Positions 13,416 to 62,122 of a stretch of DNA of 64,000 nucleotides are shown piece by piece. This stretch comes from Escherichia phage vB_EcoM_G2248, in the sequence record MK327932.1. One strand, written 5' to 3'. Both the position numbers and the translations under genes were made by a program. The notes beneath the pieces were generated by a model. The model was given only the letters and a program-made list of their open reading frames with translations, was not told where the DNA came from and made no database searches. The number at the start of each line of letters is the position of its first letter. Position 1 is the first letter of the stretch.

Positions 13416-13436
13416 TTTAAACCTCCCATATAACAG

Positions 13437-13469: not shown

Positions 13470-13493
13470 GAGTCAACCATTATTTCTTAAAAA

Positions 13494-15545
13494 TTACATT
13501 TTAAATTTATCTGGCATTGCGTCTACAGATACCAGATCAGCGATAAGCTGACGTAGAGTTGCCTTATCTGCTTTCTTACGTTCGGTTTTAGCTTCGCTAA
13601 TGAAGCTGGAGAAAGACAGGTCAGAAGCAGGTTTAACAACACCTTCACGGATGAATGCATCACCGTCCGCGATCATCTCGCCAGATTCTTGTAATGCTGC
13701 CAGTTCATTTTTGTTCATAATATGTGCCTCAATGTAATAAGTTTCTTGTGAATCCGTCGATGCCGTAGCACGAGTTACCGTATCAAAGGATAACACAACA
13801 CCGCGAGGAAGTAAAATCTCGCATTCTTTGTAAGCAAATGCTTTGTTACCTACTGGCAAGACAGGGATGTTTTCCGCGCCAGCAATGGAGAAAGCAACAT
13901 TAGCGCCACCTTCACCGCGAGAGCCAGCCATAGAATCAACACCAGCAACGGCACTAGCCACGTTTGCATTCCAGCCGCCAAAAATGTTAGGTGCAAGGGA
14001 AGTGCTCACATAGTTTTTAAAGTAAAACGCTTTTTGCTTACGTGCAGTTTCCCACATTTGCGACCGGAAGTCCATACCACGATACAGAATAGTACCCGGA
14101 TCAAGTTTAACGCCATAGTTGGAGAAGGCATTATCCAGTGCATCGCACATCTTGACCAATTCTTCTGGATCTGAGATGCCTTCAAACTCTTCCAGCTTAC
14201 GATCAGTTAGGAAGTTGTTCATATTGATGTATGCTGCATCGGCATATTCGCTCAACACAAAACCTTCCGCGCCTGGCAGATCAAGATCAATATCTGCCAT
14301 CATTTCACCCATGTTACTAGCAATTGCTTCAAACATACCGGAAGCAACATTACGCAGGGCATCGGTTTTAATCTGGGTGATATGACTACGCAGCATTTCA
14401 GCTTTTACATCTGCTGGCATAGACTGGTCTACTCGATCCATTGCCAGGGCGGTGATCTTGTTTTCGAATACTTCCTCGCTCATGATTTCTTTTAAGCGTT
14501 TGATTGATGCTGCGATAACTTCCGCAGACAACGGATCATATTGATCCTGAACTTTTACCAGTTCGCTTACTGCGTATTTTGCATCGGCTTCGCTTTCAAA
14601 AATAGTACGCATGAAACCATAGCGAGTGATAATATCACTTGTCCAGTCATTCAGAGAACGGGCGGTTGAACGTTCTAAGGCTTGACGATCAATCAGAGTA
14701 TTAAACTGTTTCTTAGGTTCGGCTTCGGTGATATCTTCTTCCGGTTTAAGATTAATTTTTTCTGGATGATTCACATAGTCGCTGTTATAGGTCGCTTGAG
14801 TTTTCAGCATTTCTTCTTTAGTCAAACGAGATTTAGCCGCTACGCGTTGTTCCGCTTCCGCGTTTCGTTCTTCTTCTGACACCAGACTAGCCGCATACGC
14901 CTCATCTTTAGTCAGAGATTCACCAGTAGCCTTAGATACCCAGCGATCACCTAAATCACTTTCTACTTTAGTGAACAAGGAATCATCAAGTTTAATCCCT
15001 TTAATCTTATCAATCGCCATACCGCGACGCTTGACAACAACTAAAGCGATCTTTTTGCTGGTCATTACTTCCTGCTGGAATACTTCAAACTTCGGTGTAC
15101 GACGCACCAAACGCTCTATAACGCGCTTAACCAGTTCGGTCTTACCTTTCATGCGGGATACGTTAAAACGGAACATAACAGCGTCTAATTGCGCTTTACG
15201 GGCTGTTTCCATAACCACATCAAAAGCACTTGCCATAACTGCAATCGGGTTATCGCCTAGACCATTTTTAAGCTGTACAATACGACCGCTTTTGTTCATT
15301 TCGCACAGTACAACATGTGCGGTCTTGTCACCCATACGAATGATTTTAGGTGTTTTGTTGGTGAAGTTACAAAGACGGACAATCACATCTTTATCGCGTG
15401 TCTGTACTGCAAAAAGCTGTTTAGGATTCTGCTTAGGCTTTAAGCACTGTACCGGAGCAATACTGCCAAAGTTTTCTTCCTCTTCCGTCAACAGCCATTT
15501 CTCGAAAGATTCAATCATTAGATCGTCGATTTCTAAGTTAAACAT
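13494..15545 (-). CDS. alt: Alt ADP-ribosyltransferase (packaged, modifies host RNA polymerase in T4)
   Basis: 683 aa (T4 Alt ~682); R-S-ExE catalytic motifs; position after gene 54 as in T4. Confidence 0.85.
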   Translation of the reverse strand: MFNLEIDDLMIESFEKWLLTEEEENFGSIAPVQCLKPKQNPKQLFAVQTRDKDVIVRLCNFTNKTPKIIRMGDKTAHVVLCEMNKSGRIVQLKNGLGDNPIAVMASAFDVVMETARKAQLDAVMFRFNVSRMKGKTELVKRVIERLVRRTPKFEVFQQEVMTSKKIALVVVKRRGMAIDKIKGIKLDDSLFTKVESDLGDRWVSKATGESLTKDEAYAASLVSEEERNAEAEQRVAAKSRLTKEEMLKTQATYNSDYVNHPEKINLKPEEDITEAEPKKQFNTLIDRQALERSTARSLNDWTSDIITRYGFMRTIFESEADAKYAVSELVKVQDQYDPLSAEVIAASIKRLKEIMSEEVFENKITALAMDRVDQSMPADVKAEMLRSHITQIKTDALRNVASGMFEAIASNMGEMMADIDLDLPGAEGFVLSEYADAAYINMNNFLTDRKLEEFEGISDPEELVKMCDALDNAFSNYGVKLDPGTILYRGMDFRSQMWETARKQKAFYFKNYVSTSLAPNIFGGWNANVASAVAGVDSMAGSRGEGGANVAFSIAGAENIPVLPVGNKAFAYKECEILLPRGVVLSFDTVTRATASTDSQETYYIEAHIMNKNELAALQESGEMIADGDAFIREGVVKPASDLSFSSFISEAKTERKKADKATLRQLIADLVSVDAMPDKFKM

Positions 15546-16144: not shown

Positions 16145-16663
16145 TTAGTTATTTTTTAATTGTTCATCTTGCAATAATGCAATCACATGCTGGCGATGTT
16201 CTTCCGATTGAGGCACACCGAAAAAGTTTGTTTTGTAGAAATACTCTAATCGGTCTTCTCGTGTGCTCTCTTCCATCATGATCGCGGGTAGTCCGAGATT
16301 TCGGAAACGTCGCTTTTCTGCTGGCGTAAAATCACTGTAATACAACATAGAATCATCATTACCAGCAATGCTAAACTCATCATTCATGAAGGAGAATATT
16401 GCGTTTAAACGCTGTTTACCGTCCACGATTTCGATCTCATAGCGAGAGCCATCATCAATCTTAGCCATTGCGATAGCACCAACCGGAAAATCATTAATCA
16501 GGTTTTCGATAAACATACGTTTGTTTTCGGTGTCCCATACCAAAGGACGCTGATAATCTGGGTTCATGTTGATATATCCATCTTCTAACCACGCCTCATA
16601 AACAGAGATGACAAAGTTTTTAGTATTGGTATAGTAACGGCGTTTAGGCGTTAAACGGTTCAT
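16145..16663 (-). CDS. DUF262 / ParB-like domain protein (GmrSD N-terminal-domain-like)
   Basis: Motifs DYQRPLVWD and IVDGKQRL typical of DUF262; start moved to ATG at 16663 (MNRLTPK, RBS AGGAGA), 172 aa. Confidence 0.6.
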   Translation of the reverse strand: MNRLTPKRRYYTNTKNFVISVYEAWLEDGYINMNPDYQRPLVWDTENKRMFIENLINDFPVGAIAMAKIDDGSRYEIEIVDGKQRLNAIFSFMNDEFSIAGNDDSMLYYSDFTPAEKRRFRNLGLPAIMMEESTREDRLEYFYKTNFFGVPQSEEHRQHVIALLQDEQLKNN

Positions 16664-16664
16664 G

Positions 16665-16997
16665 TTATAGTCTCCTGAATGGATCATCACGTAAATCAAT
16701 ATCTTTTAAGAACTCATCCCATGAATGGCGGATATTGTTCTTAATTCTCCAGATAAGCGCAGGGATTGAACGCTCTCCCATCTGGAAGTATGGATCATAT
16801 GATCCGTATGCCCAATATGCTACTACAATTCCACAATCAGCGCAATAGTATTCTATTTCACTTGCTGGCGACCAAAGTCCATCAATATGATCGGTGATCT
16901 TGCTTTCGATGTTATGGCTATGACAATCAGGGCAACGGATGCAATGACCTTGTTTATCGTAATTTGACGTTAGCGAATACTTAAACAATCTCATCAT
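16665..16997 (-). CDS. zinc-ribbon protein
   Basis: CxxC...CxxC (CIRCPDCHSH ... YCADCG); translationally coupled to both neighbours. Confidence 0.55.
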   Translation of the reverse strand: MMRLFKYSLTSNYDKQGHCIRCPDCHSHNIESKITDHIDGLWSPASEIEYYCADCGIVVAYWAYGSYDPYFQMGERSIPALIWRIKNNIRHSWDEFLKDIDLRDDPFRRL

Positions 16998-17710
16998 AGA
17001 TCCTTATTTGCTTCAAATACTGCCTTTGCGAATCCTCGCGGGGTAAGTGACCTGATAGTCTTTGTTTTCGTTCCTTTCCCGCCTAGCTTAGAATGCTGTT
17101 TACTGTACCCTTTATTAATCTGCAAAGGTTTCTTTTCTGGCATTATAAAGCCTTGTCCGGTCCATAAGCAAGTCTTTTTCGGGTACATATCACGGGCGGC
17201 AATATACTCAGGAAAAGTAGGATGTTTATCATCTTCCGGCAAATAACCGCCATATTCCCACGGATGGAACATATAATCAGGCTTACGCCACATGCTAGAG
17301 ATAACGCTTACAGGATTCTCTATCATGTAGGGAACTCCTAGCCATTCACCCAAATAAGCGGTTATTTTAGCTGCCCTTACATCATGAACTTGAATCAATG
17401 GTCCTTGCTCTCGTTTCTTTCGTTCAAAGTGTGCAGCGCCACTAACAGCTAAATTGGTGCACGGTGGGAATGCAAAGATAATATCCGGTTTCCCCCATTC
17501 AAGGTCCATTGCTCTTTCCAGCCAGTTCAAATCAATCCATGTGTTTACATAGGTAATGTTTGGATGTTCAAATCGGGTATTATACTTTTTGTATGTACCG
17601 TGGTCGCCATCGTCAGCATTAAAGCAGATCACCTTATGACCTGCTTTAGCCCATTCTAACCCCATTATCCCCGATCCGTCAAAGTTGCAGAATATTAATT
17701 TTTGTTTCAC
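16994..17710 (-). CDS. minimal C5-cytosine methyltransferase-like protein (no obvious target-recognition domain)
   Basis: Motif I-like FDGSGIMG, motif IV-like FPPCTNLAVSG (Pro-Cys), motif VI-like IENPV, C-terminal RSLTPRG resembling the LTPRE motif; only 238 aa. Confidence 0.55.
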   Translation of the reverse strand: MKQKLIFCNFDGSGIMGLEWAKAGHKVICFNADDGDHGTYKKYNTRFEHPNITYVNTWIDLNWLERAMDLEWGKPDIIFAFPPCTNLAVSGAAHFERKKREQGPLIQVHDVRAAKITAYLGEWLGVPYMIENPVSVISSMWRKPDYMFHPWEYGGYLPEDDKHPTFPEYIAARDMYPKKTCLWTGQGFIMPEKKPLQINKGYSKQHSKLGGKGTKTKTIRSLTPRGFAKAVFEANKDL

Positions 17711-23739: not shown

Positions 23740-24213
23740 TTACTCCTTATTTTCGCGCTCGTACTTTTCGAAATAAAATTCTACTGGCTGGTCATGAATT
23801 GACAGCAAGCCAAAGCGTTTAGCCGCTCGCAATCCCATATTGCGCTGAATGTACTTCTGGAAGTTCTCGCGTATACACTTACGCCAGTATTCTAAGCCCA
23901 TACAGCTTTTATAAAGATTGCATTGCACACACGCCGGATTCATGTTATCAAGTATATCATGTTCCGGTTTATGCATTCCTACAACCTTATACTTCCACGA
24001 TCCATCATCATTACGGGCAATTCGTCCATTTTCATCATAGACTACCTTTGAGCGTCGCAATACTGGTTTGATGTGGTCTGCGTGCCAGCGATCCCCTAGT
24101 TCCTCGCCACAATAGGCACAACGTCCACCATATTTCATTTTCAGGATCTGGCGTTGCTCTTTCTTTGACAATTTTTTAGGTTTAGGGGCTTTCGCCCCTT
24201 CATTATCACACAT
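23740..24213 (-). CDS. HNH endonuclease-like protein
   Basis: CAYCGEEL...HADHIKP...N...CVQCN arrangement (CxxC, HxxH, second CxxC). Confidence 0.6.
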   Translation of the reverse strand: MCDNEGAKAPKPKKLSKKEQRQILKMKYGGRCAYCGEELGDRWHADHIKPVLRRSKVVYDENGRIARNDDGSWKYKVVGMHKPEHDILDNMNPACVQCNLYKSCMGLEYWRKCIRENFQKYIQRNMGLRAAKRFGLLSIHDQPVEFYFEKYERENKE

Positions 24214-25708
24214 CGAATACCTCTTTTACTGTATTTGCAGTGGTCTTGTCGTAGCGAATACGTTTGATGATCGGGAGAAATAAAGAGAACTCAGGTTCAT
24301 CTTCTTTACGTGATTTGCTGCGAATGTACCCGTTGCATGTCATCTCAATGACTTTTCCAATCAGGTTATGACGGTCAGCCCATAACATTTCTCGGTCGAG
24401 TTCATTTCGACGATCGAACGGAATTACACGTTCAATACCATCATCACCTTTTTCGGTTGTGGTGTCGGTTAATCCCGATCCGGTGTTAGTCATCATTCGT
24501 CCGCACGCACTACGGACAGTAAAACCGCCTACCTTATTAGGATCTTTACTATGCGGATATACATCAACAATTTCAGCGTCGAAGTCAATCACTTCTTTAA
24601 ATTTAACCTGGTCTTTACTGCGACGATCTTCAAATACACCATGTAAATTTTTAAGGATAATACCTTCTAAGCCCATGTTTACATAGCGATGATATACTTC
24701 GCGAGCTTCATCTATATTGTTAACTACAGTGTTTTCGATTATCTGAACACGAGGATCGTTAAGTTCTTCAACAATCTGTTTTAGTTCTTCGAATCGATCT
24801 TTATATTGCTTCGTTGCTTTCTCGTTTCCGTAATACACATCACGGTCGATAACATCCCAGACAGTATAAACAATACATTGGGCTTCTTCTTTTGGAATAG
24901 TTCCTTTAAGTGATTTGTTGAGGATACCATTTCCGGTCTGACGATCTGCAACAACGGATTCTTTTACTGCTTCCGCTACTGGCGTTAATGGCATTTCCTC
25001 TTCTTCAAATATCCATGACAGAGTACCATCATAAACGCTCTCAACGAAGTTCTGCGCTGGTGTTTGCGAAAGGGTAGGCATATATACCAATTCGCCATCT
25101 AGAACAATTCCACGGCCTCGTAGACGCTCTAAAACCGCAAACAAATCATCAAGTCCTTGATAGGTATTACCTGAGCGGGTATAGATTGCTAATGTTTCCC
25201 CGTCAATATCAGCCATACCACGAGCGCCATCGCTTTTAAGTTGTGCATACGCCGGATACTTGATATTAGCAATAGTCTTATCAGAACATGACGATGCAAG
25301 GTGACACGGTTGCTGGGGGATCAGTTTCTTCCATACCTTGTTTGCAGTGGTAGCGGAACAACCACATTCCAGATCACGATTCAGGACCATCATTGCAACT
25401 TTAGCATCATCTTCTGACAAGCAAGTCAGAGTATCGGTAACTAGCTGTAATGCTGCGTTACCAGTTACTTGACGCGTGGCAAGTTTATTTTTAAAGACCT
25501 GTAATGCACCGGATAAAGACAATACAGACGAATAACGCGATGGTTTATCGTATTTCTTTACGCCAAACGTAACCTGTTTGCAATATGCCAGATAAAAGCA
25601 TTCTTTCAGTGTTTCATTGCTTGCAGATTCTTTCAGGATCTTTTCTTTCAGCGATGTTTTGTCTGTTGCTGCAAGCTGGTTAATGATATTAAGAATTGAC
25701 ATTTTCAC
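24206..25708 (-). CDS. 30: ATP-dependent DNA ligase
   Basis: 500 aa; colinear with T4 gp30 as recalled (KADGAR adenylation motif, IDGELV, EGIILKN, C-terminal DKTxANT). Confidence 0.9.
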   Translation of the reverse strand: MKMSILNIINQLAATDKTSLKEKILKESASNETLKECFYLAYCKQVTFGVKKYDKPSRYSSVLSLSGALQVFKNKLATRQVTGNAALQLVTDTLTCLSEDDAKVAMMVLNRDLECGCSATTANKVWKKLIPQQPCHLASSCSDKTIANIKYPAYAQLKSDGARGMADIDGETLAIYTRSGNTYQGLDDLFAVLERLRGRGIVLDGELVYMPTLSQTPAQNFVESVYDGTLSWIFEEEEMPLTPVAEAVKESVVADRQTGNGILNKSLKGTIPKEEAQCIVYTVWDVIDRDVYYGNEKATKQYKDRFEELKQIVEELNDPRVQIIENTVVNNIDEAREVYHRYVNMGLEGIILKNLHGVFEDRRSKDQVKFKEVIDFDAEIVDVYPHSKDPNKVGGFTVRSACGRMMTNTGSGLTDTTTEKGDDGIERVIPFDRRNELDREMLWADRHNLIGKVIEMTCNGYIRSKSRKEDEPEFSLFLPIIKRIRYDKTTANTVKEVFDV

Positions 25709-26404: not shown

Positions 26405-26728
26405 TTAACCGTAAACTACCACAATATTCTGTTTGTGTGTTACAGTCCATTTCAGGTCGATCTCTTCTTCCTTCTTAACGCCGTTAATAACGTCTGGATG
26501 AGGAACTTTATTCATCTTTCCATGTGGCAGTAGAACAGTTTTACCCAGCAATTCTTGATCTACCGTTTCACCAATATCAATAATCTTACCTACCAGCGGA
26601 ATCTCGCCCATAGTGCGCTTTTGCTCAATAATGATCCCCATAGAGCTTTTTACTTCGGTCCCTGCGCTTTCTGCTTTAGCTTCGATAATTACATAATCAC
26701 CAAGTGCTTTAGGAGTTTTAACGGTCAT
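26405..26728 (-). CDS. 31: GroES-like head-assembly cochaperonin
   Basis: 107 aa; GDYVIIEA and VPHPD segments as in T4 gp31; synteny. Confidence 0.8.
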   Translation of the reverse strand: MTVKTPKALGDYVIIEAKAESAGTEVKSSMGIIIEQKRTMGEIPLVGKIIDIGETVDQELLGKTVLLPHGKMNKVPHPDVINGVKKEEEIDLKWTVTHKQNIVVVYG

Positions 26729-26769: not shown

Positions 26770-27090
26770 TTATTTATAAATTTCGACGATCTGCGCTGGA
26801 GTCAGCCCGTCTACATTAATCAGACTATCAAGCCCAAAACTACGGAAACCTTCAACTGCAATTTCATATACTGGCAAAGATGTTTCTGATTCTTTACGCG
26901 GTTTTTCAACATTCGGAACTAACCACTTTTCGTATGTTTCGAAAGGCATCAGTGCCGGATCTCGCGTAGCGATCATATCTCGGACAGTACCATCTTTCTT
27001 AGTAAACTGCAAAGAGTGAGTACCGACCGAAAACATTTTCTTTAGTGCTTCACGAAGTGCGATATTATCAACTTGTTCAGTCATTATCAA
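26770..27090 (-). CDS. hypothetical protein
   Basis: 106-aa ORF between cd and 31. Confidence 0.45.
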   Translation of the reverse strand: MIMTEQVDNIALREALKKMFSVGTHSLQFTKKDGTVRDMIATRDPALMPFETYEKWLVPNVEKPRKESETSLPVYEIAVEGFRSFGLDSLINVDGLTPAQIVEIYK

Positions 27091-27583
27091 TACCCTTCAA
27101 ATCAGTCAATAATGCTTTTGGAATACGCGTGATCGTAATATCGGCATTATTCAGAATATCAGCCCAATCACGCCCACCATTTCGATCATATGTGTCGCAA
27201 TAGTATAGATGTTTAATTCCACTGTTTGCAATTGCTTTAGCGCAATCTGGACACGGTGAAGCAGTACACCACATACTAGCGCCTTCAATCGATACACCGC
27301 TACGGGCAGCAAACAAAATAGCATTTAATTCAGCGTGGATCTCGTTTTTCTGTGACCATGCACTATGCTCTGGTCGTTTTTCTGGGATCATTTTGCCGTC
27401 ATCATCCAGCCAACCGCTTTTATGTGCATGACAGCTACAATTTACTTGCCCTGCTGGAGTTCCGTTAAATCCAGTAGAAATGATTCGCCCGTCTTTTTCG
27501 ATCAGTGCGCCTACCTTCCACGAAACACATTTAGAGTTCTTTGCGATCAGATAGGCGATCTGCATGTAAGTTTGTGACAACAT
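27077..27583 (-). CDS. cd: dCMP deaminase
   Basis: Zinc-binding deaminase motifs HAELNA and PCxxCA. Confidence 0.85.
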   Translation of the reverse strand: MLSQTYMQIAYLIAKNSKCVSWKVGALIEKDGRIISTGFNGTPAGQVNCSCHAHKSGWLDDDGKMIPEKRPEHSAWSQKNEIHAELNAILFAARSGVSIEGASMWCTASPCPDCAKAIANSGIKHLYYCDTYDRNGGRDWADILNNADITITRIPKALLTDLKGIDND

Positions 27584-27604
27584 AATATAATCCTCACATA
27601 TTAA

Positions 27605-27808
27605 TTAACCGTATACGCGAAAGTATTCTACTGATCCGTCGCTATACTGTTTTACATTGAATGTATTCACACCATGATTATTTCTCATGATGACATATAC
27701 ACTGCGACGCTCATCACCAAACGGCATAACTGGCGCTGGTTCAATATCAACACTAAAACCACGTTTAGCAAGTGCTTCGCCTAATTGCTTGATTTTATCG
27801 GTAAACAT
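27605..27808 (-). CDS. hypothetical protein
   Basis: 67 aa, coupled to pseT stop. Confidence 0.45.
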   Translation of the reverse strand: MFTDKIKQLGEALAKRGFSVDIEPAPVMPFGDERRSVYVIMRNNHGVNTFNVKQYSDGSVEYFRVYG

Positions 27809-28707
27809 TAAAAGTCTCCGTAGTTAACCTGAAAACATTCTACACCAATTGAGCGGTACATGTCAACCACTTGATCACGATCATCTACTGCCAACACAAC
27901 ATGATAACGCGGTGCAATTTCAGAGAAGAAAATCTCTTTCTTCACTTCATGATCGGGACGACGATCATTAGTTTCACGTTGAAAGTGATCACTCGGTTCA
28001 ATACCCTGTTCACGCAACCATTGCAGAGTATCTTCTTCGCAAACATCCTCACGCCCTGAGCATGTAATGATACGATAACCATTATCACGATACAGTTTAA
28101 GCATTTCGATCACTTGCGGACGCGGTTTATCTTCTTTGACCTTTGTCCAGTCAAACGGATGACGACCGCCCTTATCCGCTAATGTTCCATCAATATCAAA
28201 GATCACTGCCTTCGGCAGCATGGTATTCGGTTTGTATACTTCTTGACCCATATATTCCTGCATCAGATAAAATTGGTTACGCAAATGAGAAAGTGGAATT
28301 GCTTTCTCGCCTCGATAGAAATTACGTTTCTTTAGTGTCTCAAATGATTCATTGAACACTTGTTCAGTATACACCGCGTTAAATTCTTTTGCAAGTTCTT
28401 TGTAGAATACACGATGTTTTTCTTTCAGGTTAGTATCAGAGATAATGATACTTAATCCGCGTGATAGAGTCTCACGAGCAATCATTCTCTGAATAGACTC
28501 TACCAGTTTTTCTTTTTCCTTAGTATACTTGTATTTCAAATGTGAGTCAACACCAAACAACATAAGACGAAGATCATCGCGATTCACATTACGATAATTA
28601 CTAAACCGTTTACACGTTTCCATAGCCCATGTAGTTTTACCGGACCCAGAACAACCAACGGTTAAAATCACTTCACATTTCGGCATTATTTCTCCTTCGG
28701 TTTGCAC
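27808..28707 (-). CDS. pseT: polynucleotide 5'-kinase/3'-phosphatase
   Basis: Walker A GCSGSGKTT, NRDDLR, HAD phosphatase motif IFDIDGTLA, C-terminal ECFQV as in T4 Pnk; exact start ambiguous (28707 or 28686). Confidence 0.85.
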   Translation of the reverse strand: MQTEGEIMPKCEVILTVGCSGSGKTTWAMETCKRFSNYRNVNRDDLRLMLFGVDSHLKYKYTKEKEKLVESIQRMIARETLSRGLSIIISDTNLKEKHRVFYKELAKEFNAVYTEQVFNESFETLKKRNFYRGEKAIPLSHLRNQFYLMQEYMGQEVYKPNTMLPKAVIFDIDGTLADKGGRHPFDWTKVKEDKPRPQVIEMLKLYRDNGYRIITCSGREDVCEEDTLQWLREQGIEPSDHFQRETNDRRPDHEVKKEIFFSEIAPRYHVVLAVDDRDQVVDMYRSIGVECFQVNYGDF

Positions 28708-29018
28708 CGTTCCTCATTAAGTTCTTTTCGATAATAACACATGATCAACTTACTTTCAAGTGTATATCTCTTAATATCAGCAAGCCAGACTCTAAATTTT
28801 TGGGAGTCCTCCCACGACATAGAAACTCTAGGTTTACCGTCTATTGTATCCACTTTCAGGTCAATGTCAACTTTTTCTATTGGTGCTGGTAGTTGAGGAT
28901 GTAATTTCGGTTCCTGTGAATAATGGTCCAGTGTACACGAAGAAAGAGCAAATACAATAGGCACAGCGAAGACATGGATTATGGCGGTCTGAAAATTCTT
29001 ATGTGCTTTCTTAAACAT
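28686..29018 (-). CDS. o-spanin-like outer-membrane lipoprotein (pseT.2 position)
   Basis: Internal start MFKKAHK... gives signal peptide with lipobox ALSSC and a Pro-rich periplasmic region; lies directly after the i-spanin candidate. Confidence 0.5.
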   Translation of the reverse strand: MFKKAHKNFQTAIIHVFAVPIVFALSSCTLDHYSQEPKLHPQLPAPIEKVDIDLKVDTIDGKPRVSMSWEDSQKFRVWLADIKRYTLESKLIMCYYRKELNEERCKPKEK

Positions 29019-29134
29019 CCGGTGTATCACGAAAATTGAAAACACCATCAGGATAATAATGCTTGCCCCTATCCCCAGATAATCAACCAGATTAAAATTG
29101 CTTATCTGCTCTTGCGTAGGCAATATTTCTATGC

Positions 29135-29458
29135 TCATTTAGTAGCCTCCTTTAATTCTTCGGTAAACTCCTTAAATGAATCATTAAGCTGTTTCTCTAC
29201 CAACTTGGGTTTTTGTGCTACTACATAGCCTCGTGTAGCGTCTTTCATTGCTTTGTTTTGTTCTTCTGCAAACTTAGTTCTTATTCCGTACATATCCTTT
29301 TGTAGTGAGTCTACGACCTTCATCTTTTCATCTGTCTTTTTCTTATACTCTGTAAATTCCTGATTCAGTCGGTCTACCTCCTTTTTATTTTCCCACCACA
29401 TATTACCACCTACCCCTAGCAACACAGAGATGATAACAATGTATATCAGCTTTGACAT
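29135..29458 (-). CDS. i-spanin-like protein (pseT.3 position)
   Basis: Start moved to MSKLIYIVIISVLLGVGG (N-terminal TM) followed by coiled-coil; RBS GGGGG. Confidence 0.55.
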   Translation of the reverse strand: MSKLIYIVIISVLLGVGGNMWWENKKEVDRLNQEFTEYKKKTDEKMKVVDSLQKDMYGIRTKFAEEQNKAMKDATRGYVVAQKPKLVEKQLNDSFKEFTEELKEATK

Positions 29459-29502
29459 ATTACCCCCAACGACAAAAGGCGGGGAACTAGCCCCGCTTAT
29501 TA

Positions 29503-30672
29503 TTACCAATCAATCTTATCAGCCGGAATAAGTTTCTTATAATTCCGTAGATAGTAAGTTTTCATTGAATCCAGAATACGGTCATAATCAAGACCATCAA
29601 ATGCAATCATCAGACACATGAAAATATATGCTTGTGCATCACCATGTTTACGTGATTCGATAGTCGCATTTGATGCATATGTCTTTCTGTCTTCTCCCGC
29701 GTGTGCGTTATAAAATTCTGTTGCTGTCGTGAAGGCATTGCGAAGAATAGACCTGAATGCTTCCTCGAATAGCTCGATTCGTTCCAGTGCTTCCGGTTCG
29801 CCTTCATATGCAGCACGCAAATCATCGGTTTCGCTTTCTACGACATAGTAGATCAGGTTATTAGGAAACATCGATGTGTTTTTAATGTTATGCACACCAA
29901 TATACCATTCACTCTTCACTTTGAACATTTGACCGTCTTTAGTGCGTGCAACAATTCCTTCGATACCTTCTGCGGTCCGAACTTCGTCAAGAATATTGCC
30001 AAAACGCGCTGAATCAACCTGTAACGCATTTACCAGATGAGGACGTAGGATTGCGTCAGCAAATAGCATTTGATGCGGTACGTACTCTCCTGTGACGTTA
30101 TGGCGTACATTCAGAAGTGTTAGCGACGGTTCAGAATATTCTACAACAATTCGGTTGCTGGGTGCTGTATATTCAAAGTTGAAAGTATAATCAGACCCAA
30201 TATCAGCAATCTTAGCGCGTAGATCCGCATACTTCTCTGAATACAGAAGACCGTTTGCTCTCTCTGCCTGGCTTGAGTACAAGGCCGCTTTAGACTTCAA
30301 CTGAACATAGCCGTTATCAATGTATGTGCTTACTAGACTACCGTCCATTTTGTCCATGACCATTTCCACATCTTCCGGCTTAAAGCGAGCGCGATCATTC
30401 TCACCCAAATTAAAAAACTTCTCCATAGGACGAGATGCGATGCGGACCGGACGACCTTTATCGTCAATTTCAAACATGATCCCGCGACACTCTAACGCAT
30501 CTGGTTTATTCCACATTTCCGGTTTGCTCAAGTACAGATAACTAAAAATGCGCATACGGGTTTGCATCGCCGTAATTTCATCTTTGTAATAGAACGTATC
30601 AGATCCGTCACATAGTGCCATCAGATTTTTGAACAATGCTAAAACTTTTTTGTTGTTTTCTTTTGTTGACAT
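29503..30672 (-). CDS. rnlA: RNA ligase 1 / tail-fibre attachment protein
   Basis: LECRGIMFE, RIASRPMEKFFNL and nucleotidyltransferase Lys motif region as in T4 Rnl1. Confidence 0.85.
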   Translation of the reverse strand: MSTKENNKKVLALFKNLMALCDGSDTFYYKDEITAMQTRMRIFSYLYLSKPEMWNKPDALECRGIMFEIDDKGRPVRIASRPMEKFFNLGENDRARFKPEDVEMVMDKMDGSLVSTYIDNGYVQLKSKAALYSSQAERANGLLYSEKYADLRAKIADIGSDYTFNFEYTAPSNRIVVEYSEPSLTLLNVRHNVTGEYVPHQMLFADAILRPHLVNALQVDSARFGNILDEVRTAEGIEGIVARTKDGQMFKVKSEWYIGVHNIKNTSMFPNNLIYYVVESETDDLRAAYEGEPEALERIELFEEAFRSILRNAFTTATEFYNAHAGEDRKTYASNATIESRKHGDAQAYIFMCLMIAFDGLDYDRILDSMKTYYLRNYKKLIPADKIDW

Positions 30673-31069
30673 AATTTGTGTTCCATTCTGGTTTAAATTT
30701 GGTGATCAAAACAGGTTCTTCGATATCGGCAGTGCTTATAATATCCTTACCCGTTGGATTCTCGATGTACAACTCAAAGCACTGTCGGTAATAGAATGTT
30801 ACTGTCTTACCTTCCTCTAGCGCCTTATGAATATTCTTACTCTTGCGAGTATCCGCTGTTGGTGTTTGTCTGTTAATGCTAGTCCTGTAATAATTGATCC
30901 TCTTTCTGAGATTGACAGTCTGACCAATGTATACCAGTTCATCATCAACAACAATAGCGTAAAGAACATTTAAACGGTTCTTCTGAGGCGGCAGAATCAC
31001 ATCACCATCTTTACACTCTAAACATGAATATTTAACGAATCCATAGTTTTCTATTAGCTCATTAATCAT
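30608..31069 (-). CDS. denA: GIY-YIG nuclease, probably endonuclease II (denA-like)
   Basis: LYAI...x9...YIGQT...R..R..Y GIY-YIG core; position between rnlA and nrdB as T4 denA. Confidence 0.6.
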   Translation of the reverse strand: MINELIENYGFVKYSCLECKDGDVILPPQKNRLNVLYAIVVDDELVYIGQTVNLRKRINYYRTSINRQTPTADTRKSKNIHKALEEGKTVTFYYRQCFELYIENPTGKDIISTADIEEPVLITKFKPEWNTNYVNKRKQQKSFSIVQKSDGTM

Positions 31070-31119
31070 TATCCTTTCCTCACGTCACAACAAAGGCGGG
31101 ATTTCTCCCGCCCACCTTA

Positions 31120-31518
31120 TTAACTTTCCAGAATATCGCGAGCTTCGTTACGCTCCTTGATGATTTTCAGGACAAATTCCAGTTTTTCTTTGTTCAGTGT
31201 TCCGTTTTCCATTGCTTCTTTGACGGTAAACACTCCGCCACCTTGCCCGTATACAGTGACAGTGATTTCACCTAACATCGTGGTGTGAAAACCGCCAATT
31301 TTCGGTGATTCGAAAGAAACAATTACCTCGCGGACAGTATTACCGTCGTTGATTTCTGAGAGGGTAATGTCGTTTTTGTAGGCGGTTGCTTTAACCATAC
31401 GGATCAGCATAGTCTGATCTGGGGAGATGGTCATTTTGTCCATTGCATGTTGCAATGCAGCGTAACCGAAAACTTTAACGAAGTCCAGAACGTCTTTGCG
31501 AGTTTGAAATTTAATCAT
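31120..31518 (-). CDS. hypothetical protein
   Basis: 132 aa behind a promoter cassette. Confidence 0.5.
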   Translation of the reverse strand: MIKFQTRKDVLDFVKVFGYAALQHAMDKMTISPDQTMLIRMVKATAYKNDITLSEINDGNTVREVIVSFESPKIGGFHTTMLGEITVTVYGQGGGVFTVKEAMENGTLNKEKLEFVLKIIKERNEARDILES

Positions 31519-31588
31519 CTTGATACTCCTTAGTTGTTTTGGTATGGGAGTATCTTACTACTCCCGTGATATGCTGTCAACTGCTTTT

Positions 31589-31738
31589 TTATGCAACCGC
31601 AAACATCAACATTTGAACATTCTTGGCTGTCTGGCTTTCAAAGTTCTGACATTCTTTGATAATGTCCTCTACTTTCTCGCCGGAGATCTCCGCGTAAGTT
31701 TCGATTGCCATTTTCAGTACCGCGTCAAAGTTGTTCAT
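31589..31738 (-). CDS. hypothetical small helical protein
   Basis: Start moved to MNNFDAVLK after conserved leader; 49 aa. Confidence 0.45.
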   Translation of the reverse strand: MNNFDAVLKMAIETYAEISGEKVEDIIKECQNFESQTAKNVQMLMFAVA

Positions 31739-31806
31739 TTGATTCTCCTTAAAGTGTATTTCGTTTCGATGGGGGTATATTACTACCCCCCGTTTCATGC
31801 TGTCAA

Positions 31807-32025
31807 CTACTTTTTAATGACAAGTTCGAATTTTGCTACCTTGCGTCCTCGTTTATTGAAAGCAACCCACGGACGATTTTCAATGTAGAACAATTCTTCG
31901 CCAATAATGAATACTGGCTGATTGTAAAGGCGACCCATCAGGTCACGCTGGCGAATGGTAGTAGATTCGTATACTTCGCCTACTACAAAGTGCTTGCTGA
32001 TAGAGTCGGTGCAAGTAAATTTCAT
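31807..32025 (-). CDS. hypothetical protein
   Basis: 72 aa, own promoter cassette. Confidence 0.5.
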   Translation of the reverse strand: MKFTCTDSISKHFVVGEVYESTTIRQRDLMGRLYNQPVFIIGEELFYIENRPWVAFNKRGRKVAKFELVIKK

Positions 32026-32094
32026 TTTGATTCTCCTTTGTTTCGTTTCGATGGGGGTATATTACTACCCCCGTTATTCAGTGTCAACTACTTT

Positions 32095-32313
32095 TTACTT
32101 GTTGTATTCATTCCACCATTGGGTTAGCTTATCAATTATTTTTGTGTTTCTATCCAACTTATCCCACCGTTTTCGAGGGTTTATCAACCGTAATAGGTAA
32201 GGTGTACTTGTTAAGTGAACTCGGTCAATGTAGTGATTGATGTACTGTTTTTCGATTCTAAGTTTCATCTTTTTACGATGAAAATATGCAATGACTTGTT
32301 CTTCTGTTTCCAT
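32095..32313 (-). CDS. hypothetical basic protein
   Basis: Start moved to METEEQVIAY (RBS GGAGG); 72 aa. Confidence 0.45.
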   Translation of the reverse strand: METEEQVIAYFHRKKMKLRIEKQYINHYIDRVHLTSTPYLLRLINPRKRWDKLDRNTKIIDKLTQWWNEYNK

Positions 32314-32411
32314 ATGTTCCTCCGTTTCGATGTGCATTATGCTATACCCCGATCCGATTGTCAACACCCAATAACAAAAAAGTCGCCACGATGGGCGACT
32401 TTGAACAAACA

Positions 32412-32888
32412 TTAATCATGACCGTGATTTGCAATATCCGCTCGCGTCTTATCTTTGTGATTTCCTACGTCAAAGACACGATAACCATTTTCACGCAAAA
32501 CTTTAATCACTTCTGGGTTATCCTCAAAGACTCCGACAACTTCATCTTTATCAAAGGATTTAATTACCTCTAATTTGATGTGATAGTCTTTACGGGAATC
32601 GGTACGGCCTCTCATAAAGATTTTATCAAAACACACCCCGTTAGAAATTAACCAATCAATTGTTTCCATGTAAGCATGTGAACTTCGTCCGGTGAGGATG
32701 TAAATCAAATGCCCGTTGTCGGAAAGAGCATTAATAACACGAATTACATCGTAAATGGGGGAATCTCCCCCACATGCTTTGTTATATTCGATCCATGACT
32801 CGACTTTATCAAGATTTTCGGTTGGCATCTTTGCTAGTCGATGCGTTGGATCTGTGATCGTAAAATCTAAATCGACAAAATATATCAT
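32412..32888 (-). CDS. HAD-superfamily phosphatase-like protein
   Basis: N-terminal DLDFT (DxDxT) motif at residues 6-10; coupled to nrdB. Confidence 0.55.
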   Translation of the reverse strand: MIYFVDLDFTITDPTHRLAKMPTENLDKVESWIEYNKACGGDSPIYDVIRVINALSDNGHLIYILTGRSSHAYMETIDWLISNGVCFDKIFMRGRTDSRKDYHIKLEVIKSFDKDEVVGVFEDNPEVIKVLRENGYRVFDVGNHKDKTRADIANHGHD

Positions 32889-34045
32889 AGATATTTCCCG
32901 AATCGGTTGTAGTCGTCGTCTGTTAAATCGGTATTAACCTGAGATACCAGATACATGATCTCTACTTCTTGCGCCGCGTTTTGAACTTCGTCAGAGTTTA
33001 ACCACTTACGCATCCACGGTAAAGGATGACGACGAACACTAAACGGGCTTTTCAGTCCGGCAGCACGCATACGGGAATCTGCCAGGTATTCTACATAGGT
33101 TTTCAGAATTTCCGGTGACAGGTTAGGAATTGCCCCCATTGCGAATAAGTGATCTACCCATTCTTTTTCTTGCTCGACAACATCCAGAAAGATTTTCGTT
33201 GCTTCGCCTTCAAGTTCTTCCGCAATCTGTTTCCACTCATCACCATCAGCCCCCGTTTGCCATTGACGAATAATGTATTGTGTGCCTTTTAAGTGAAGTT
33301 GTTCATCACGCGCAATAAATTTCATGATCTTCGCGTTACCTTCCAGTAAACCACGTTCGGCAAAGCTGAAAGTACATGCAAAGGACACATAAAAACGGAT
33401 TGCTTCCAGTGCATTTACGCAGTGTGCACACAGATAAATCGAAGCCATCAGATCTCGTTTTGTATCTTCAAAAAATCTTCTTGCATCATCTAATTCTGTC
33501 TGATCGTCTCGTTCTTCCCAATAGCGGAGATCTTCTTTTGCATTCTCATACTTACGAATCCAATAGAGAACATCATCATAATATTGCCCGATAGATTCCG
33601 CTCGCTTCATGATAGCAGGGTTATCGATGATCTGGTCGAACTCACTAGCCGGATCAATGAAACAGTTACGCATAATGTGTGTATAGCTTCGGCTATGAAT
33701 CGTTTCGCTGAATGTCCATGTTTGCAACCATGTATCAAGAGTCGGATCAGATACAATTGGACCAAATGCTGCGGACGGTGCGCGACCTTGAATAGAATCA
33801 AGTAATGTCTGATACTTCAAGTTTTCGGTAAAGAAACGCTTTTCAACGTCACCCATATTAAGATATTGAATACGGTCGGTTGCAAGTGAAATCTCTTCTG
33901 GACGCCAGAAAAATGACAATTGCTTTTCGATCAGTTCTTCAAATACTTGATGACGCTGAATATCATAGCGAGCGATACCCAACCCACTACCCAGAAACAT
34001 TGGTTCGTTCATAATATCAACATGTTCGCGGTTAAATACGCTCAT
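32885..34045 (-). CDS. nrdB: ribonucleotide reductase class Ia beta subunit
   Basis: 386 aa; diiron-carboxylate R2 features; uninterrupted ORF. Confidence 0.9.
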   Translation of the reverse strand: MSVFNREHVDIMNEPMFLGSGLGIARYDIQRHQVFEELIEKQLSFFWRPEEISLATDRIQYLNMGDVEKRFFTENLKYQTLLDSIQGRAPSAAFGPIVSDPTLDTWLQTWTFSETIHSRSYTHIMRNCFIDPASEFDQIIDNPAIMKRAESIGQYYDDVLYWIRKYENAKEDLRYWEERDDQTELDDARRFFEDTKRDLMASIYLCAHCVNALEAIRFYVSFACTFSFAERGLLEGNAKIMKFIARDEQLHLKGTQYIIRQWQTGADGDEWKQIAEELEGEATKIFLDVVEQEKEWVDHLFAMGAIPNLSPEILKTYVEYLADSRMRAAGLKSPFSVRRHPLPWMRKWLNSDEVQNAAQEVEIMYLVSQVNTDLTDDDYNRFGKYL

Positions 34046-34636: not shown

Positions 34637-36880
34637 TTACAGCTTGCAAGATGAGCACTCGCTAGCGTCTTCTGTACCATCTGCACCGTCGCGAACGTTC
34701 GCATAATACAGGGTTTTCAGACCGTAATGTTGAGCGAACAACATATCATCTAACACATCAGCAATATCGACTTTACCAGTCTTATAAGTGCTTGGATCAT
34801 AGGATGTATTGGAACTAATCGCCTGATCTACAAACTTCTGCATGATCGCTGCCAGTGTCAGATAGGGCTTGTTACCTTTCTTGATCAGTGTCCAAAGCAG
34901 GTCAATAACATCAGCATTATTCTCTACGTTCGGAATAACCTGATTAAATTGCCCTTCTTTCGATCCTTTAACCGATACAATCCCGCGAGGCGGTTCAATA
35001 CCGTTTGTGCTGTTAGACACCTGAGAAGATGACTCACAGGGCATCAGCGCCGAAAGCGTACTGTTACGAATGCCATATTTTTTCAGGTCTTCGCGCAGTT
35101 CTTCCCAATCCATCTCATACACCGGATCAACCAGTTCATCTACTGTCTTTTTGTACCAGTCGATAGGAAGTTCACCGCGACCATAGCGTGTTTCGTGCAT
35201 CAGTTCGCAAGCACCCTTCTCTTTAGCCAGTCGCACACTAGCCTTAATCAGAGCATATTGCAAGCGTTCAAACGTTTTATGCGTAAACTCGTTAGCGTCT
35301 TCATATGTGAAGAAATTATCTGCTAGATATGATGCAAAGTTAGTAACACCAACACCCAGAGAGCGACGTTTTTTGGCTGTCAGAGCTTGTTCTACAGGAT
35401 AATCCTGATAATCTAACAGGTTGTCAAGTGCACGCACCATAACCATAGCAATGCGTTCTACTTCTTCCATATTTTCGATATCGAAATTACCTAAAACATA
35501 TGCTGCCAAAGTACATAGGCTAATTTCTGAATCATCACGACCCATCGGTTTTGTTGGCAGAGCAATTTCACAACACAGGTTAGATTGTTTAATCGGTGCT
35601 ACATTACGAATAAACGCCCCGTGATTGTTCATGTTGTCTGTGAACGCTGGATAGATTCGACCAGTGTTAAAACGTTCAATTGCCACCGCTAAAAACAGGT
35701 CTTCGGCTTTAACACGAGTTTTACGAACACTCGGATCTTTTTCCAGTTTTTCGTAAAGCTGGCGGAAACCTTCCTCATCTCGGAAGTACAGATCCCACAA
35801 CAAGCCACCCGCAACATCTGGACTAAACAGAGTAATGTAATCCCGTTTAAGGAATCGCTCTACCATCAGGTTATTAATCTGTACGCCGTAATCAAGATGA
35901 CGAATGCGGTTATCTTCCACCCCCTTATTGTTCTTTAACACAATCAGACTTTCAAACTCTAAATGCCACATTGGGTAATAGAGTGTCGCTGCCCCGCCAC
36001 GAATACCGCCTTGTGAGCATGACTTAACGGCAGTCTGAAAATGTTTCCAGAATGGGATAACGCCAGTATGACGAACTTCACCATGCCCGATCTTAGATCC
36101 TTCCGCGCGAATCATACCAGCATTGATACCGATACCAGCACGCTTGCTAATATACTTGATGATTGCATTTGCTGTTTCGTTGATGCCCGGCAATGAGTCA
36201 TCACTTTCAATCACCACACACGAACTAAATTGGCGTGTTGGGGTACGCACACCTGCCATAATCGGAGTAGGCAGAGAGATTTGCTTATTCGCAACAGCAT
36301 TATAAAAATCAATCACATGTTCAAGTCGATTTTCTGTCTCTTCTTGATGCAAGCACATACCGATCAGCATATACGCAAATTGCGGTGTTTCGATTATTTT
36401 CTTAGTGCTGCGATCCTGAACAAGATATTTCTCTTTTAACTGCATCGCACCAGCATAGGTCATTTTAAAATCAAGTTTATGGTCGATGAATTTCTCCAGA
36501 TATTCCACTTCTTCACGGGAATACTTTTGCAGAATTTCGCGATCATATTTTCCGGTTGCAATATTACTCTCAATATGGCTGTAAAAATCAATCGGTTGGA
36601 ATTGACCGTATACTGATTTGCGAAGCGCGAACATTGCAAGGTTACTTGCTACATATTGATAATCGGGTGTTTCTACAGTGATGTTATCTGCGGCGACCTT
36701 AATCAATACTTTCTGGATATCATTGGTAGACATACCTTCTGTCAGAAGTGGTTCAACCATATCAAACAATTCATATGGATCAACGTTATGACCTTCGGCT
36801 GCCGCTTCCAGAATTTTCATTACTTTTTCTTTTTCAAACGGAACAGTCAGACCGGAAGACTTAACAACATTTTTAATCAT
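34637..36880 (-). CDS. nrdA: ribonucleotide reductase class Ia alpha subunit
   Basis: 747 aa; ATP-cone N-terminus, catalytic Cys-containing core, C-terminal CSSCKL-type tail. Confidence 0.9.
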   Translation of the reverse strand: MIKNVVKSSGLTVPFEKEKVMKILEAAAEGHNVDPYELFDMVEPLLTEGMSTNDIQKVLIKVAADNITVETPDYQYVASNLAMFALRKSVYGQFQPIDFYSHIESNIATGKYDREILQKYSREEVEYLEKFIDHKLDFKMTYAGAMQLKEKYLVQDRSTKKIIETPQFAYMLIGMCLHQEETENRLEHVIDFYNAVANKQISLPTPIMAGVRTPTRQFSSCVVIESDDSLPGINETANAIIKYISKRAGIGINAGMIRAEGSKIGHGEVRHTGVIPFWKHFQTAVKSCSQGGIRGGAATLYYPMWHLEFESLIVLKNNKGVEDNRIRHLDYGVQINNLMVERFLKRDYITLFSPDVAGGLLWDLYFRDEEGFRQLYEKLEKDPSVRKTRVKAEDLFLAVAIERFNTGRIYPAFTDNMNNHGAFIRNVAPIKQSNLCCEIALPTKPMGRDDSEISLCTLAAYVLGNFDIENMEEVERIAMVMVRALDNLLDYQDYPVEQALTAKKRRSLGVGVTNFASYLADNFFTYEDANEFTHKTFERLQYALIKASVRLAKEKGACELMHETRYGRGELPIDWYKKTVDELVDPVYEMDWEELREDLKKYGIRNSTLSALMPCESSSQVSNSTNGIEPPRGIVSVKGSKEGQFNQVIPNVENNADVIDLLWTLIKKGNKPYLTLAAIMQKFVDQAISSNTSYDPSTYKTGKVDIADVLDDMLFAQHYGLKTLYYANVRDGADGTEDASECSSCKL

Positions 36881-62120: not shown

Positions 62121-62122
62121 TA

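Follow-up and report, generated by a model that had tools for sequence, protein, structure and literature searches.

The block of genes around rnlA in Escherichia phage vB_EcoM_G2248 raises the question of which form of cytosine this phage uses, since an initial annotation of the 64,000-nucleotide stretch analysed here (the window; MK327932.1) had found a denA-like GIY-YIG nuclease but no alc-like gene between the spanins and rnlA, together with a gene resembling C5 cytosine methyltransferases (C5-MTases). On templates that contain cytosine, Alc halts E. coli RNA polymerase, and the T-even phages combine hydroxymethylcytosine (hmC) with alc and denB, whereas plain cytosine is found in the RB49 and RB43 groups. 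Our analysis indicates, with a probability of about 90%, that the window belongs to the Krischvirus lineage of T4-type coliphages with ordinary cytosine DNA and lacks the hmC-dependent network of gene 42, alpha- and beta-glucosyltransferase, alc, denB, arn and ndd. The absence of alc is real but ordinary, and it is expected rather than anomalous because, judging from its known function, Alc would shut off the own genes of a phage with cytosine DNA.

The locus lies in a conserved early-gene block with the order nrdB, denA, rnlA, spanins, pseT and cd, and its features are listed in Table 1. In the T4 record the order is denA, rnlA, alc, pseT.3, pseT.2, pseT.1 and pseT, with a 167-aa alc at 10773-11276 of the T4 stretch examined, between rnlA and pseT.3, where the initial annotation had placed it. 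In the window, the 3' end of denA and the start of rnlA share 65 nt in the ORF map, and the rnlA stop codon (29503-29505) is followed after 44 nt by the i-spanin ATG at 29458, leaving no room for a 167-aa gene such as alc. The earlier statements that the i-spanin candidate adjoins rnlA and that alc is missing between them are thus borne out by the spacer, and no alc homologue was found in the window or in RB49. The spacer contains a Shine-Dalgarno-like GGGGGT and a hairpin at 29496-29479 (GCGGGG-CTAGTT-CCCCGC, then CTTTTGT) detected by a scan for terminator-like structures; we call it terminator-like and nothing stronger because its fold energy was not distinguishable from that of shuffled sequences (z 0.43).

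Table 1 Features of the rnlA-spanin junction and the C5-MTase-like gene in the window.
Feature	Positions	Strand	Description
C5-MTase-like gene, RB49p189 homologue	16994-17710	minus	238 aa, class I methyltransferase-fold protein (predicted)
pseT, polynucleotide 5'-kinase/3'-phosphatase	27808-28686	minus	Pfam domains
pseT.2 homologue, o-spanin	28686-29138	minus	PHROG 812 and T4 PseT.2 homology
pseT.3 homologue, i-spanin	29135-29458	minus	107 aa from ATG at 29458
spacer where T4 has alc	29459-29502	minus	44 nt
rnlA (gene 63), RNA ligase 1 and tail-fibre attachment protein	29503-30672	minus	389 aa
denA-like GIY-YIG endonuclease II	30608-31069	minus	153 aa

The genes flanking the spacer were identified by domain, PHROG and T4 protein matches. 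The rnlA product matches Pfam T4_Rnl1_C (E 1e-32) and RNA_lig_T4_1 (E 3e-20) as well as PHROG 562 (E 2e-124), is 43% identical to T4 RnlA (tblastn E 7e-91), and carries the KxDG motif as DKMDG in its translation. The i-spanin matches PHROG 739 'Rz-like spanin' (E 7e-27) and T4 PseT.3 (34% identity, tblastn E 1e-9), and the o-spanin matches PHROG 812 'Rz-like spanin' over residues 53-150 (E 1e-31) and T4 PseT.2 (48% identity, tblastn E 2e-19). The translation of the o-spanin shows a lipobox, FALSS|C, about 65 residues from the N-terminus, and an internal ATG at 29018 would yield a standard lipoprotein signal peptide. Together with the hydrophobic N-terminal segment that the i-spanin translation shows from the ATG at 29458 (MSKLIYIVIISVLLGVGG), the homology and the lipobox give this pair the features of a two-component spanin. 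A TTG at 29509 (ORF 29135-29509) was also considered as the i-spanin start, but this frame would extend across the hairpin into rnlA, and the TTG is unlikely to be the true start; the ATG at 29458 is preferred because it is preceded by a Shine-Dalgarno-like sequence, GGGGGTAAT, and gains the transmembrane segment. The old RB49 annotation begins pseT.3 at a later Met and loses this segment, whereas the annotation of the Krischvirus SAP uses the start equivalent to 29458, which fits better. The pseT product contains HAD_PNKP (E 1e-52) and AAA_33 (E 2e-18) domains and is annotated as pseT in RB49.

The T4 block (NC_000866, 134.0-138.0 kb) is orthologous to that of the window for denA, rnlA (43%), pseT.3 (34%), pseT.2 (48%) and pseT, and order and orientation are shared. 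Two genes of the T4 block are missing here: alc, which separates rnlA from pseT.3, and pseT.1, which follows pseT.2. T4 DNA contains glucosyl-hmC, in contrast to the plain cytosine of the Krischvirus lineage.

Fifty-eight Krischvirus (RB49-like) genomes, RB49 among them, match the window at 95-99% identity. Over the locus, nucleotide identity is 98.2% with RB49 and reaches 98.8%, the highest value, with vB_EcoM_G5211; in the first 25 kb the best match is 95-97% identical. In the corresponding RB49 and Krischvirus block (AY343333/NC_005066, ~127.7-131.0 kb), genes, order, overlaps and spacer are identical and only point differences occur. These comparisons bear on whether alc was lost by a recent deletion, or is missing through an assembly artefact, peculiar to this sequence. 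We found no support for such an event, although the junction does carry a hairpin, a kind of structure at which frequent recombination has been proposed for T4-like genomes (PMC4122927). On the other hand, in 55 of the 58 independent genomes at least 80% of 27000-33000 aligns to a single place with 95-99% identity and the rnlA-spanin arrangement is the same, so that the absence of alc is not a quirk of one sequence. RB49, SAP and TB34 are annotated with an identical junction, and the Alc family itself is very narrow (20 clusters among 5.8 billion proteins). A deletion or artefact is therefore effectively refuted.

T4 Alc, DenB, Ndd, Arn, alpha-gt, beta-gt and gp42 were used as tblastn queries against the window and the complete RB49 genome; the ~100 kb of the phage genome outside the window was judged from relatives. 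For the six proteins other than gp42, no match in the window or the whole of RB49 was better than E 0.04. Alc gave no match in the window and at best E 0.36 in RB49, and both glucosyltransferases remained at E > 0.7 in the two targets. An Alc HMM built from 20 sequences, which scores T4 at E 1.5e-90 as positive control, reached at best E 0.5 among the ORFs from six-frame translation of the window and RB49, and scans of the local ORFs detected no Pfam PF17527 (Alc, transcription terminator on cytosine DNA). In both targets gp42 matched only its thymidylate synthase paralogue td (E 0.008-0.011). We rejected td as a hidden dCMP hydroxymethylase, as it fits the thymidylate synthase equivalog models and keeps the dUMP-specifying Asn of the LPFN motif. 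The initial annotation had placed no dCMP hydroxymethylase or glucosyltransferase locus in the window, in agreement with these searches, and the complete genome of RB49, the type relative, likewise contains no detectable gene 42, a-gt, b-gt or alc homologue. DenA, RnlA, PseT.3 and PseT.2 homologues were found by tblastn in both the window and RB49, and gp56 and Dam homologues in RB49 only, outside the region of the window.

The loci that carry the hmC genes in T4 gave the same picture. T4 has beta-gt and gene 42 at the uvsX-gene 43 junction, unlike RB49, where uvsX adjoins gene 43 directly with neither gene present. This junction is contiguous in 53/58 Krischvirus records, and the other five carry an insert of ~790 bp annotated as HNH/homing endonuclease in four and as hypothetical protein in one; beta-gt and gene 42 are absent from it in all 58. 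After gene 47, RB49 has an HNH gene, then a-gt.4, a-gt.5 and gene 55; alpha-gt is absent there. Pfam detected no TET/JBP or glycosyltransferase domain in ~30 window ORFs or in ten RB49 proteins, several of which are uncharacterised ORFs near the region equivalent to that of alpha-gt.

The modification state that the initial annotation had left open is answered by the literature on close relatives, whose virion DNA contains canonical cytosine. HpaII and NheI, both sensitive to C5 methylation, cut RB49 DNA, which contains no hmC or glucosyl-hmC (PMC4041780), and only canonical nucleosides were detected in TB34 DNA by HPLC-MS (PMC13390438). Krischvirus has been scored as dCTPase+, hmC-, denB-, denA+, ndd- and alc- (PMC12115623, Table 4). 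Both the alc-lacking pattern and the cytosine state are therefore already published; our finding re-derives a known distinction among T4-type phages from raw sequence and adds nothing new to biology.

The window and RB49 also bear a mark that agrees with unmodified DNA exposed to restriction. In both, EcoKI sites and G/C-containing 6-bp palindromes have been nearly eliminated, which is not the case in T4. Of the testable palindromic hexamers, 17/58 are absent from the window, compared with 10/3870 non-palindromic ones; the corresponding palindrome counts are 20/62 in RB49 and 0/55 in 74 kb of T4. The window contains 0 EcoKI sites, where shuffled sequences have 7.0 +/- 3.0. We found no published work on restriction-site avoidance in RB49. 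Purging of sites, rather than base modification, appears to be the defence of this phage from host restriction, and it would offer an answer to the question raised in PMC2993671 of how unmodified genomes escape it.

The purging signature also argues against a 2026 report of a fully modified Krischvirus, SAP, whose DNA was described as about one third 5-hmdC and two thirds alpha-gentiobiosyl-methyl-dC and as BrxU-sensitive, and for which the authors could identify no pathway (PMC13390438). If this profile is genuine, a phage of this group would hypermodify cytosine through a pathway unrelated to gp42 and the T4 glucosyltransferases, with the C5-MTase-like protein, whose gene is conserved in an operon-like trio, as a possible entry step, and alc would be absent only because an unrelated shut-off factor replaces Alc. 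We regard this as very improbable for the present phage. Blanket protection would not maintain such extreme purging of palindromes and EcoKI sites, RB49 and TB34 DNA behave as described above, and gp42, glucosyltransferase and Alc homologues, as well as TET/JBP and glycosyltransferase domains, are missing from the sequences scanned. SAP is 99.96% identical to the unmodified TB34, and its modification profile is that of seven Tequatrovirus phages isolated with it (PMC13390438). A 46-kb comparison of SAP with TB34, made to look for a genetic switch for modification, turned up one intergenic indel of 79 bp and otherwise only changes of single bases or in homopolymers. The TB34 annotation contains frameshift-split rnlA, nrdB and frd genes, which point to assembly errors. 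In our view, a problem with the sample accounts for the SAP anomaly better than a genetic switch would. It is equally improbable that some Krischvirus, this phage possibly among them, fully hypermodify cytosine without gp42, glucosyltransferase or Alc homologues; were it true, an undiscovered and probably post-replicative pathway would exist, of which the C5-MTase-like protein could be the first step.

What the C5-MTase-like protein itself might do is a separate matter. It matches PHROG 757 'DNA methyltransferase' (E 2e-90), but it has no Pfam match at E <= 0.01, PF00145 included, no NCBIfam match, and no PDB sequence match at E <= 10. Its 7310 homologues are of ~230 aa, and three among the 120 listed carry a precomputed PF00145. 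Canonical C5-MTases share motif I (FxGxG), motif IV (PC, with the catalytic Cys) and motif VI (ENV). In 30 diverse homologues of the phage protein, F10/G12/G14 (FxGxG), P82-P83-C84 and E131-N132-P133 are invariant, a set that resembles the canonical one with ENP in place of ENV and no recognisable target-recognition domain. AlphaFold2 modelled the protein with a mean pLDDT of 89.9, and Foldseek matched the model to generic class I SAM methyltransferases; DIM2, at rank 2 with TM 0.49, was the sole C5 DNA methyltransferase near the top of the list. The other two members of the gene's operon-like trio are a Zn-ribbon ORF and a GmrSD_N/DUF262 ORF. For classifying the protein, PHROGs, remote homologues and the predicted fold were the informative sources, and it is best described as a compact, divergent putative methyltransferase. 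The gene noted in the initial annotation does exist, and nothing shows that it changes the bulk state of cytosine.

Such an enzyme could nevertheless leave bulk cytosine unmodified and set 5-methylcytosine at short sites, marking the DNA against DenA, restriction or both, an idea raised for the RB43 and RB49 groups in PMC8056088. The invariant catalytic-type motifs and the confidently predicted class I methyltransferase fold speak for this possibility, as does the dependence of T4 EndoII on a CG base pair near the scissile bond, three positions away from it (PMC2764454). On the other hand, the protein lacks a sequence match to PF00145, NCBIfam models or solved C5-MTases and a recognisable target-recognition domain, and its only structural link to C5-MTases is the match to DIM2 at TM 0.49. 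In addition, HpaII cuts RB49 DNA (PMC4041780), no modified nucleoside was found in TB34 (PMC13390438), and T4GT7 tolerates DenA without such protection (PMC12115623). Site-specific methylation thus seems unlikely, if less so than hypermodification.

The reading with ordinary cytosine has to accommodate DenA, which the initial annotation had correctly recognised as a denA-like GIY-YIG nuclease. The protein is a DenA orthologue, 49% identical to T4 DenA by tblastn (E 1.5e-41) and 51% by alignment (69/135 aligned residues), and matches PDB 2WSH (T4 endonuclease II) over residues 3-134 (E 2.6e-38) and PHROG 1111 (E 2e-52). Its gene adjoins rnlA upstream, on the nrdB side, in the window, RB49 and T4. 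All five T4 DenA residues whose roles were defined by mutation (K12, G49, R57, K76 and the catalytic E118; PMC2764454) are conserved, and from its sequence the enzyme looks catalytically intact. denA is nearly universal among T4 relatives, and alc and denB co-distribute with gene 42 (PMC2993671, Table 4). The cytosine-DNA laboratory strain T4GT7 (42am 56am delta(rIIB-52, including denB) alc) has listed mutations in 42, 56, denB and alc and none in denA (PMC12115623), so that the presence of denA creates no tension with cytosine DNA; by analogy, the T4GT7 genotype implies that DenA is compatible with cytosine-containing phage DNA. We propose that Krischvirus replicates with ordinary cytosine and that DenA probably still nicks host DNA to a limited degree, starting nucleotide scavenging, and we infer that the phage's own DNA is spared from DenA or repaired.

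Three of the genes that have to be mutated for T4 to make viable cytosine DNA, 42, denB and alc, are naturally absent here, and the glucosyltransferases, arn and ndd are missing from Krischvirus as well. Pseudotevenvirus (RB43/RB16), compared from the literature alone, is hmC-, denB-, alc-, denA+ and dCTPase+, has a cytosine methyltransferase homologue (PMC12115623, Table 4; PMC8056088) and, unlike Krischvirus, has ndd. DNA of cytosine-containing relatives is cut by ordinary restriction enzymes and targeted normally by Cas9, and such phages perform generalized transduction at measurable frequency, which is relevant to phage therapy (PMC4041780, PMC12115623). In T4GT7, gene 56 has to be inactivated as well. 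Krischvirus, by contrast, retains a homologue of this gene (dCTPase/dUTPase), 49% identical to that of T4 in RB49; its retention is not obviously compatible with the use of dCTP unless the dCTPase activity has been lost.

All genes in the part of the window running from nrdA to DNA ligase lie on the minus strand. The initial annotation had found no counterpart of alc, the T4 gene that blocks transcription of cytosine-containing DNA, between the pseT/spanin genes and rnlA. The T4 position of alc given there agrees with the RefSeq record, where the order is denA, rnlA, alc (504 nt), pseT.3, pseT.2, pseT.1, and pseT. In the window, the rnlA stop codon is at 29503-29505 and the best i-spanin start is the ATG at 29458, the first coordinate of the interval flagged initially, which is preceded by GGGGGTAAT and gives a protein with the hydrophobic N-terminal segment MSKLIYIVIISVLLGVGG. 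The spacer is therefore 44 nt and has no room for a gene, which confirms the absence of alc at this junction. A terminator-like hairpin lies inside the spacer (29496-29479), and its fold energy was not statistically separated from that of shuffled sequence. In the o-spanin ORF, the lipoprotein signal FALSS|C is preceded by ~40 additional N-terminal residues that include a separate hydrophobic segment; this extension is missing from T4 PseT.2. Initiation at an internal ATG (29018) would result in a conventional signal peptide.

Positions of the features discussed, with the basis of assignment or a remark
Feature	Position	Strand	Basis or remark
rIIB	62803-63804	-	
Gene 52	60386-61765	-	
Thymidylate synthase, 406 aa	36949-38169	-	
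nrdA	34637-36880	-	ORF map
nrdB	32885-34045	-	ORF map
HAD-type phosphatase	32412-32888	-	ORF map
Four small ORFs	between 31120 and 32412	-	ORF map
denA-like GIY-YIG protein, 153 aa	30608-31069	-	ORF map, Pfam
rnlA, RNA ligase, 389 aa	29503-30672	-	ORF map, Pfam
i-spanin ORF	29135-29509	-	ORF map
o-spanin	28686-29138	-	ORF map
pseT	27808-28707	-	ORF map, Pfam
cd	27077-27583	-	ORF map
Gene 31	26405-26728	-	ORF map
DNA ligase	24206-25708	-	ORF map
C5-MTase-like gene, 238 aa	16994-17710	-	in trio 16145-17710
Zn-ribbon (CxxC) ORF, 110 aa	16665-16997	-	after C5-MTase-like gene
GmrSD_N/DUF262-only ORF, 184 aa, without nuclease half	16145-16699	-	in trio with C5-MTase-like gene
Two adjacent ADP-ribosyltransferase genes	12591-15545	-	683-aa Alt homologue, 274-aa paralogue

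The search was extended beyond the window using T4 RefSeq proteins as tblastn queries against the window and the complete, reassembled genome of RB49. DenA (49% identity, E 1.5e-41), RnlA (43%), PseT.3 (34%), and PseT.2 (48%) matched both, and gp56 (49%) and Dam (45%) matched only RB49, at loci beyond the window. No match above noise (best E 0.04) was obtained in either sequence with Alc, DenB, Ndd, Arn, alpha-gt, beta-gt, or PseT.1. A more sensitive profile HMM, combining T4 Alc with 19 database homologues (lowest identity 48%), recovered the T4 control at E 1.5e-90, and ORFs from all six frames of the window and RB49 scored no better than E 0.5. The Alc family is a very narrow one; 5.8 billion proteins yielded just 20 clusters. 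Thus, neither alc nor the hydroxymethylcytosine (hmC) pathway was found elsewhere in the whole RB49 genome by these searches. T4 gp42 matched only the thymidylate synthase gene in both sequences (E 0.008-0.011), and a hidden gp42 was rejected because the dUMP-specifying asparagine (LPFN) is kept and thymidylate synthase equivalog models are matched. This enzyme owes its length to an in-frame insertion of ~125-140 aa, which falls in the variable small-domain region and separates the parts aligning with the two halves of the Pfam/NCBIfam profile; its gene lacks the intron of T4 td. The RB49 gene 56 homologue (L005, a piece of that genome, 9490-10008), which has a weak Pfam dUTPase_2 match and resembles the T4 dCTPase/dUTPase, is retained although RB49 must incorporate dCTP.

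The window belongs to Krischvirus, the RB49-like relatives of T4. Its 27000-33000 region matched 58 phage records at 95-99% identity, all of them Krischvirus and including RB49 (98.2%), Phi1, JSE, GEC-3S, SAP, and TB34, and at least 80% of the region was covered in one place by 55 of the 58. Since no record is identical to the window, it represents a new isolate within a well-sampled genus. In the RB49 annotation, gene 43 directly follows uvsX without segA, beta-gt, 42, or imm, and gene 47 is followed by an HNH gene, a-gt.4, a-gt.5, and gene 55 without alpha-gt. The uvsX-43 junction is contiguous in 53/58 records and interrupted in the other five only by a ~790-bp insert, for which four records give an HNH/homing endonuclease and the fifth a hypothetical protein. 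Gene 52 and rIIB, which flank ac, stp, ndd, and denB in T4, here (within 60386-63804) enclose three small Krischvirus-specific ORFs (PHROGs 16033 and 14049) instead. The shorter of the two ADP-ribosyltransferases resembles the Alt C-terminus, and these Alt-type enzymes may help a phage that lacks Alc and Ndd to take over its host.

The denA-like nuclease reported initially is indeed present. It aligns over its full length with T4 endonuclease II (EndoII; PDB 2WSH, E 2.6e-38; 69/135 residues identical in a global alignment), lies at the T4 denA position, and conserves K12, G49, R57, K76, and E118, for which mutagenesis established roles in binding, recognition, and catalysis (PMC2764454). The gene is a denA orthologue whose product is probably active. 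T4 EndoII needs hardly anything beyond a CG base pair close to the scissile bond for recognition (PMC2764454), so that avoiding such sites is an implausible means of self-protection. The distribution of alc and denB is the same as that of gene 42 (Petrov et al. 2010, PMC2993671, Table 4), and T4GT7, a T4 strain making cytosine DNA, is amber-mutated in 42 and 56, has lost denB through a rIIB-to-52 deletion, and is mutant in alc, with no denA mutation listed (PMC12115623, 2025). Cytosine-containing phage DNA thus tolerates denA but not alc and denB, and the apparent tension between a present denA and an absent alc dissolves. Krischvirus has been scored dCTPase+, hmC-, denB-, denA+, ndd-, and alc- (PMC12115623, Table 4), a published pattern that supports the initial linking of the missing alc to cytosine state. 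The absence of alc is therefore a re-derivation of biology already known for Krischvirus, with a conventional mechanism. RB49 DNA showed neither hmC nor glucosyl-hmC by digestion and was cut by HpaII and NheI (PMC4041780), and HPLC-MS of TB34 detected canonical nucleosides only (PMC13390438).

Observed hexamer counts were compared with Markov expectations in the window (64 kb), RB49 (164 kb), and T4 (74 kb). Palindromic hexamers were absent in 17/58, 20/62, and 0/55 testable cases, with median O/E of 0.70, 0.69, and 0.93, respectively; the corresponding non-palindromic absences were 10/3870, 10/3998, and 0/3818. For each palindrome missing from the window, 3 to 25 occurrences were expected, and in RB49 TCCGGA (0 observed versus 65 expected), GAATTC (2 versus 46), AAGCTT (0 versus 38), and GGATCC (0 versus 34) were depleted. 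G/C-containing 6-bp palindromes were nearly purged from both sequences, AT-only ones were not avoided, and GATC was not avoided in the window (O/E 1.03; T4, 0.34). EcoKI sites were absent from the window (0 versus 7.0 +/- 3.0 in dinucleotide-preserving shuffles) and from all of RB49. Such purging is the classical footprint left when type II and type I restriction act on unprotected DNA over long periods. It agrees with plain cytosine and is hard to reconcile with blanket modification. Our literature search found no paper on G/C-palindrome purging in RB49.

A hidden modification pathway would be one reading of a single report, in which SAP, 99.96% identical to TB34, was BrxU-sensitive and contained about one-third 5-hmdC and two-thirds alpha-gentiobiosyl-methyl-dC (PMC13390438, 2026). 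Its authors called this unexplained, and seven Tequatrovirus phages from the same collection had an identical profile (PMC13390438). We compared these two Durham genomes over 46 kb homologous to window ~7000-53000. They differed only in homopolymer lengths, a few single bases (two being C-to-T in CCCCGG context), and one 79-bp intergenic indel (L002, the SAP sequence, 8885), with no difference in denA, the C5-MTase-like gene, or td. Because rnlA, nrdB, frd, and pseT.3 are split by frameshifts in the TB34 annotation, most of these differences look like assembly errors. Ten RB49 proteins, including several uncharacterised ones encoded close to the alpha-gt-equivalent region, showed neither a TET/JBP nor a glycosyltransferase domain in Pfam searches. 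Combined with the palindrome purging, these results suggest a stock or sample problem as the likelier source of the SAP profile, a hidden pathway being very improbable.

The cytosine-5 methyltransferase-like (C5-MTase-like) gene noted initially exists and is a homologue of RB49p189 (RefSeq "DNA methyltransferase"), but a bulk effect on cytosine is excluded by the digestion and HPLC-MS results in the literature, which would still allow modification at rare sites. Its product had no sequence match in Pfam, NCBIfam, or PDB, matched PHROG 757 (E 2e-90), and had >7000 homologues of ~230 aa, mostly on phage-sized contigs; PF00145 was carried by 3 of the 120 homologues listed. F-x-G-x-G, P-P-C, and E-N-P were invariant across 30 diverse homologues. 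A confident AlphaFold2 model (pLDDT 89.9) retrieved generic class I methyltransferases with Foldseek, the fungal C5 DNA methyltransferase DIM2 being the only relevant near-top match (TMq 0.49). The protein is best regarded as a compact, divergent putative methyltransferase, possibly of C5 type. Its gene belongs to an operon-like trio with overlapping stop/start codons, in which the GmrSD-like domain is curious for a cytosine-DNA phage competing with hmC phages.
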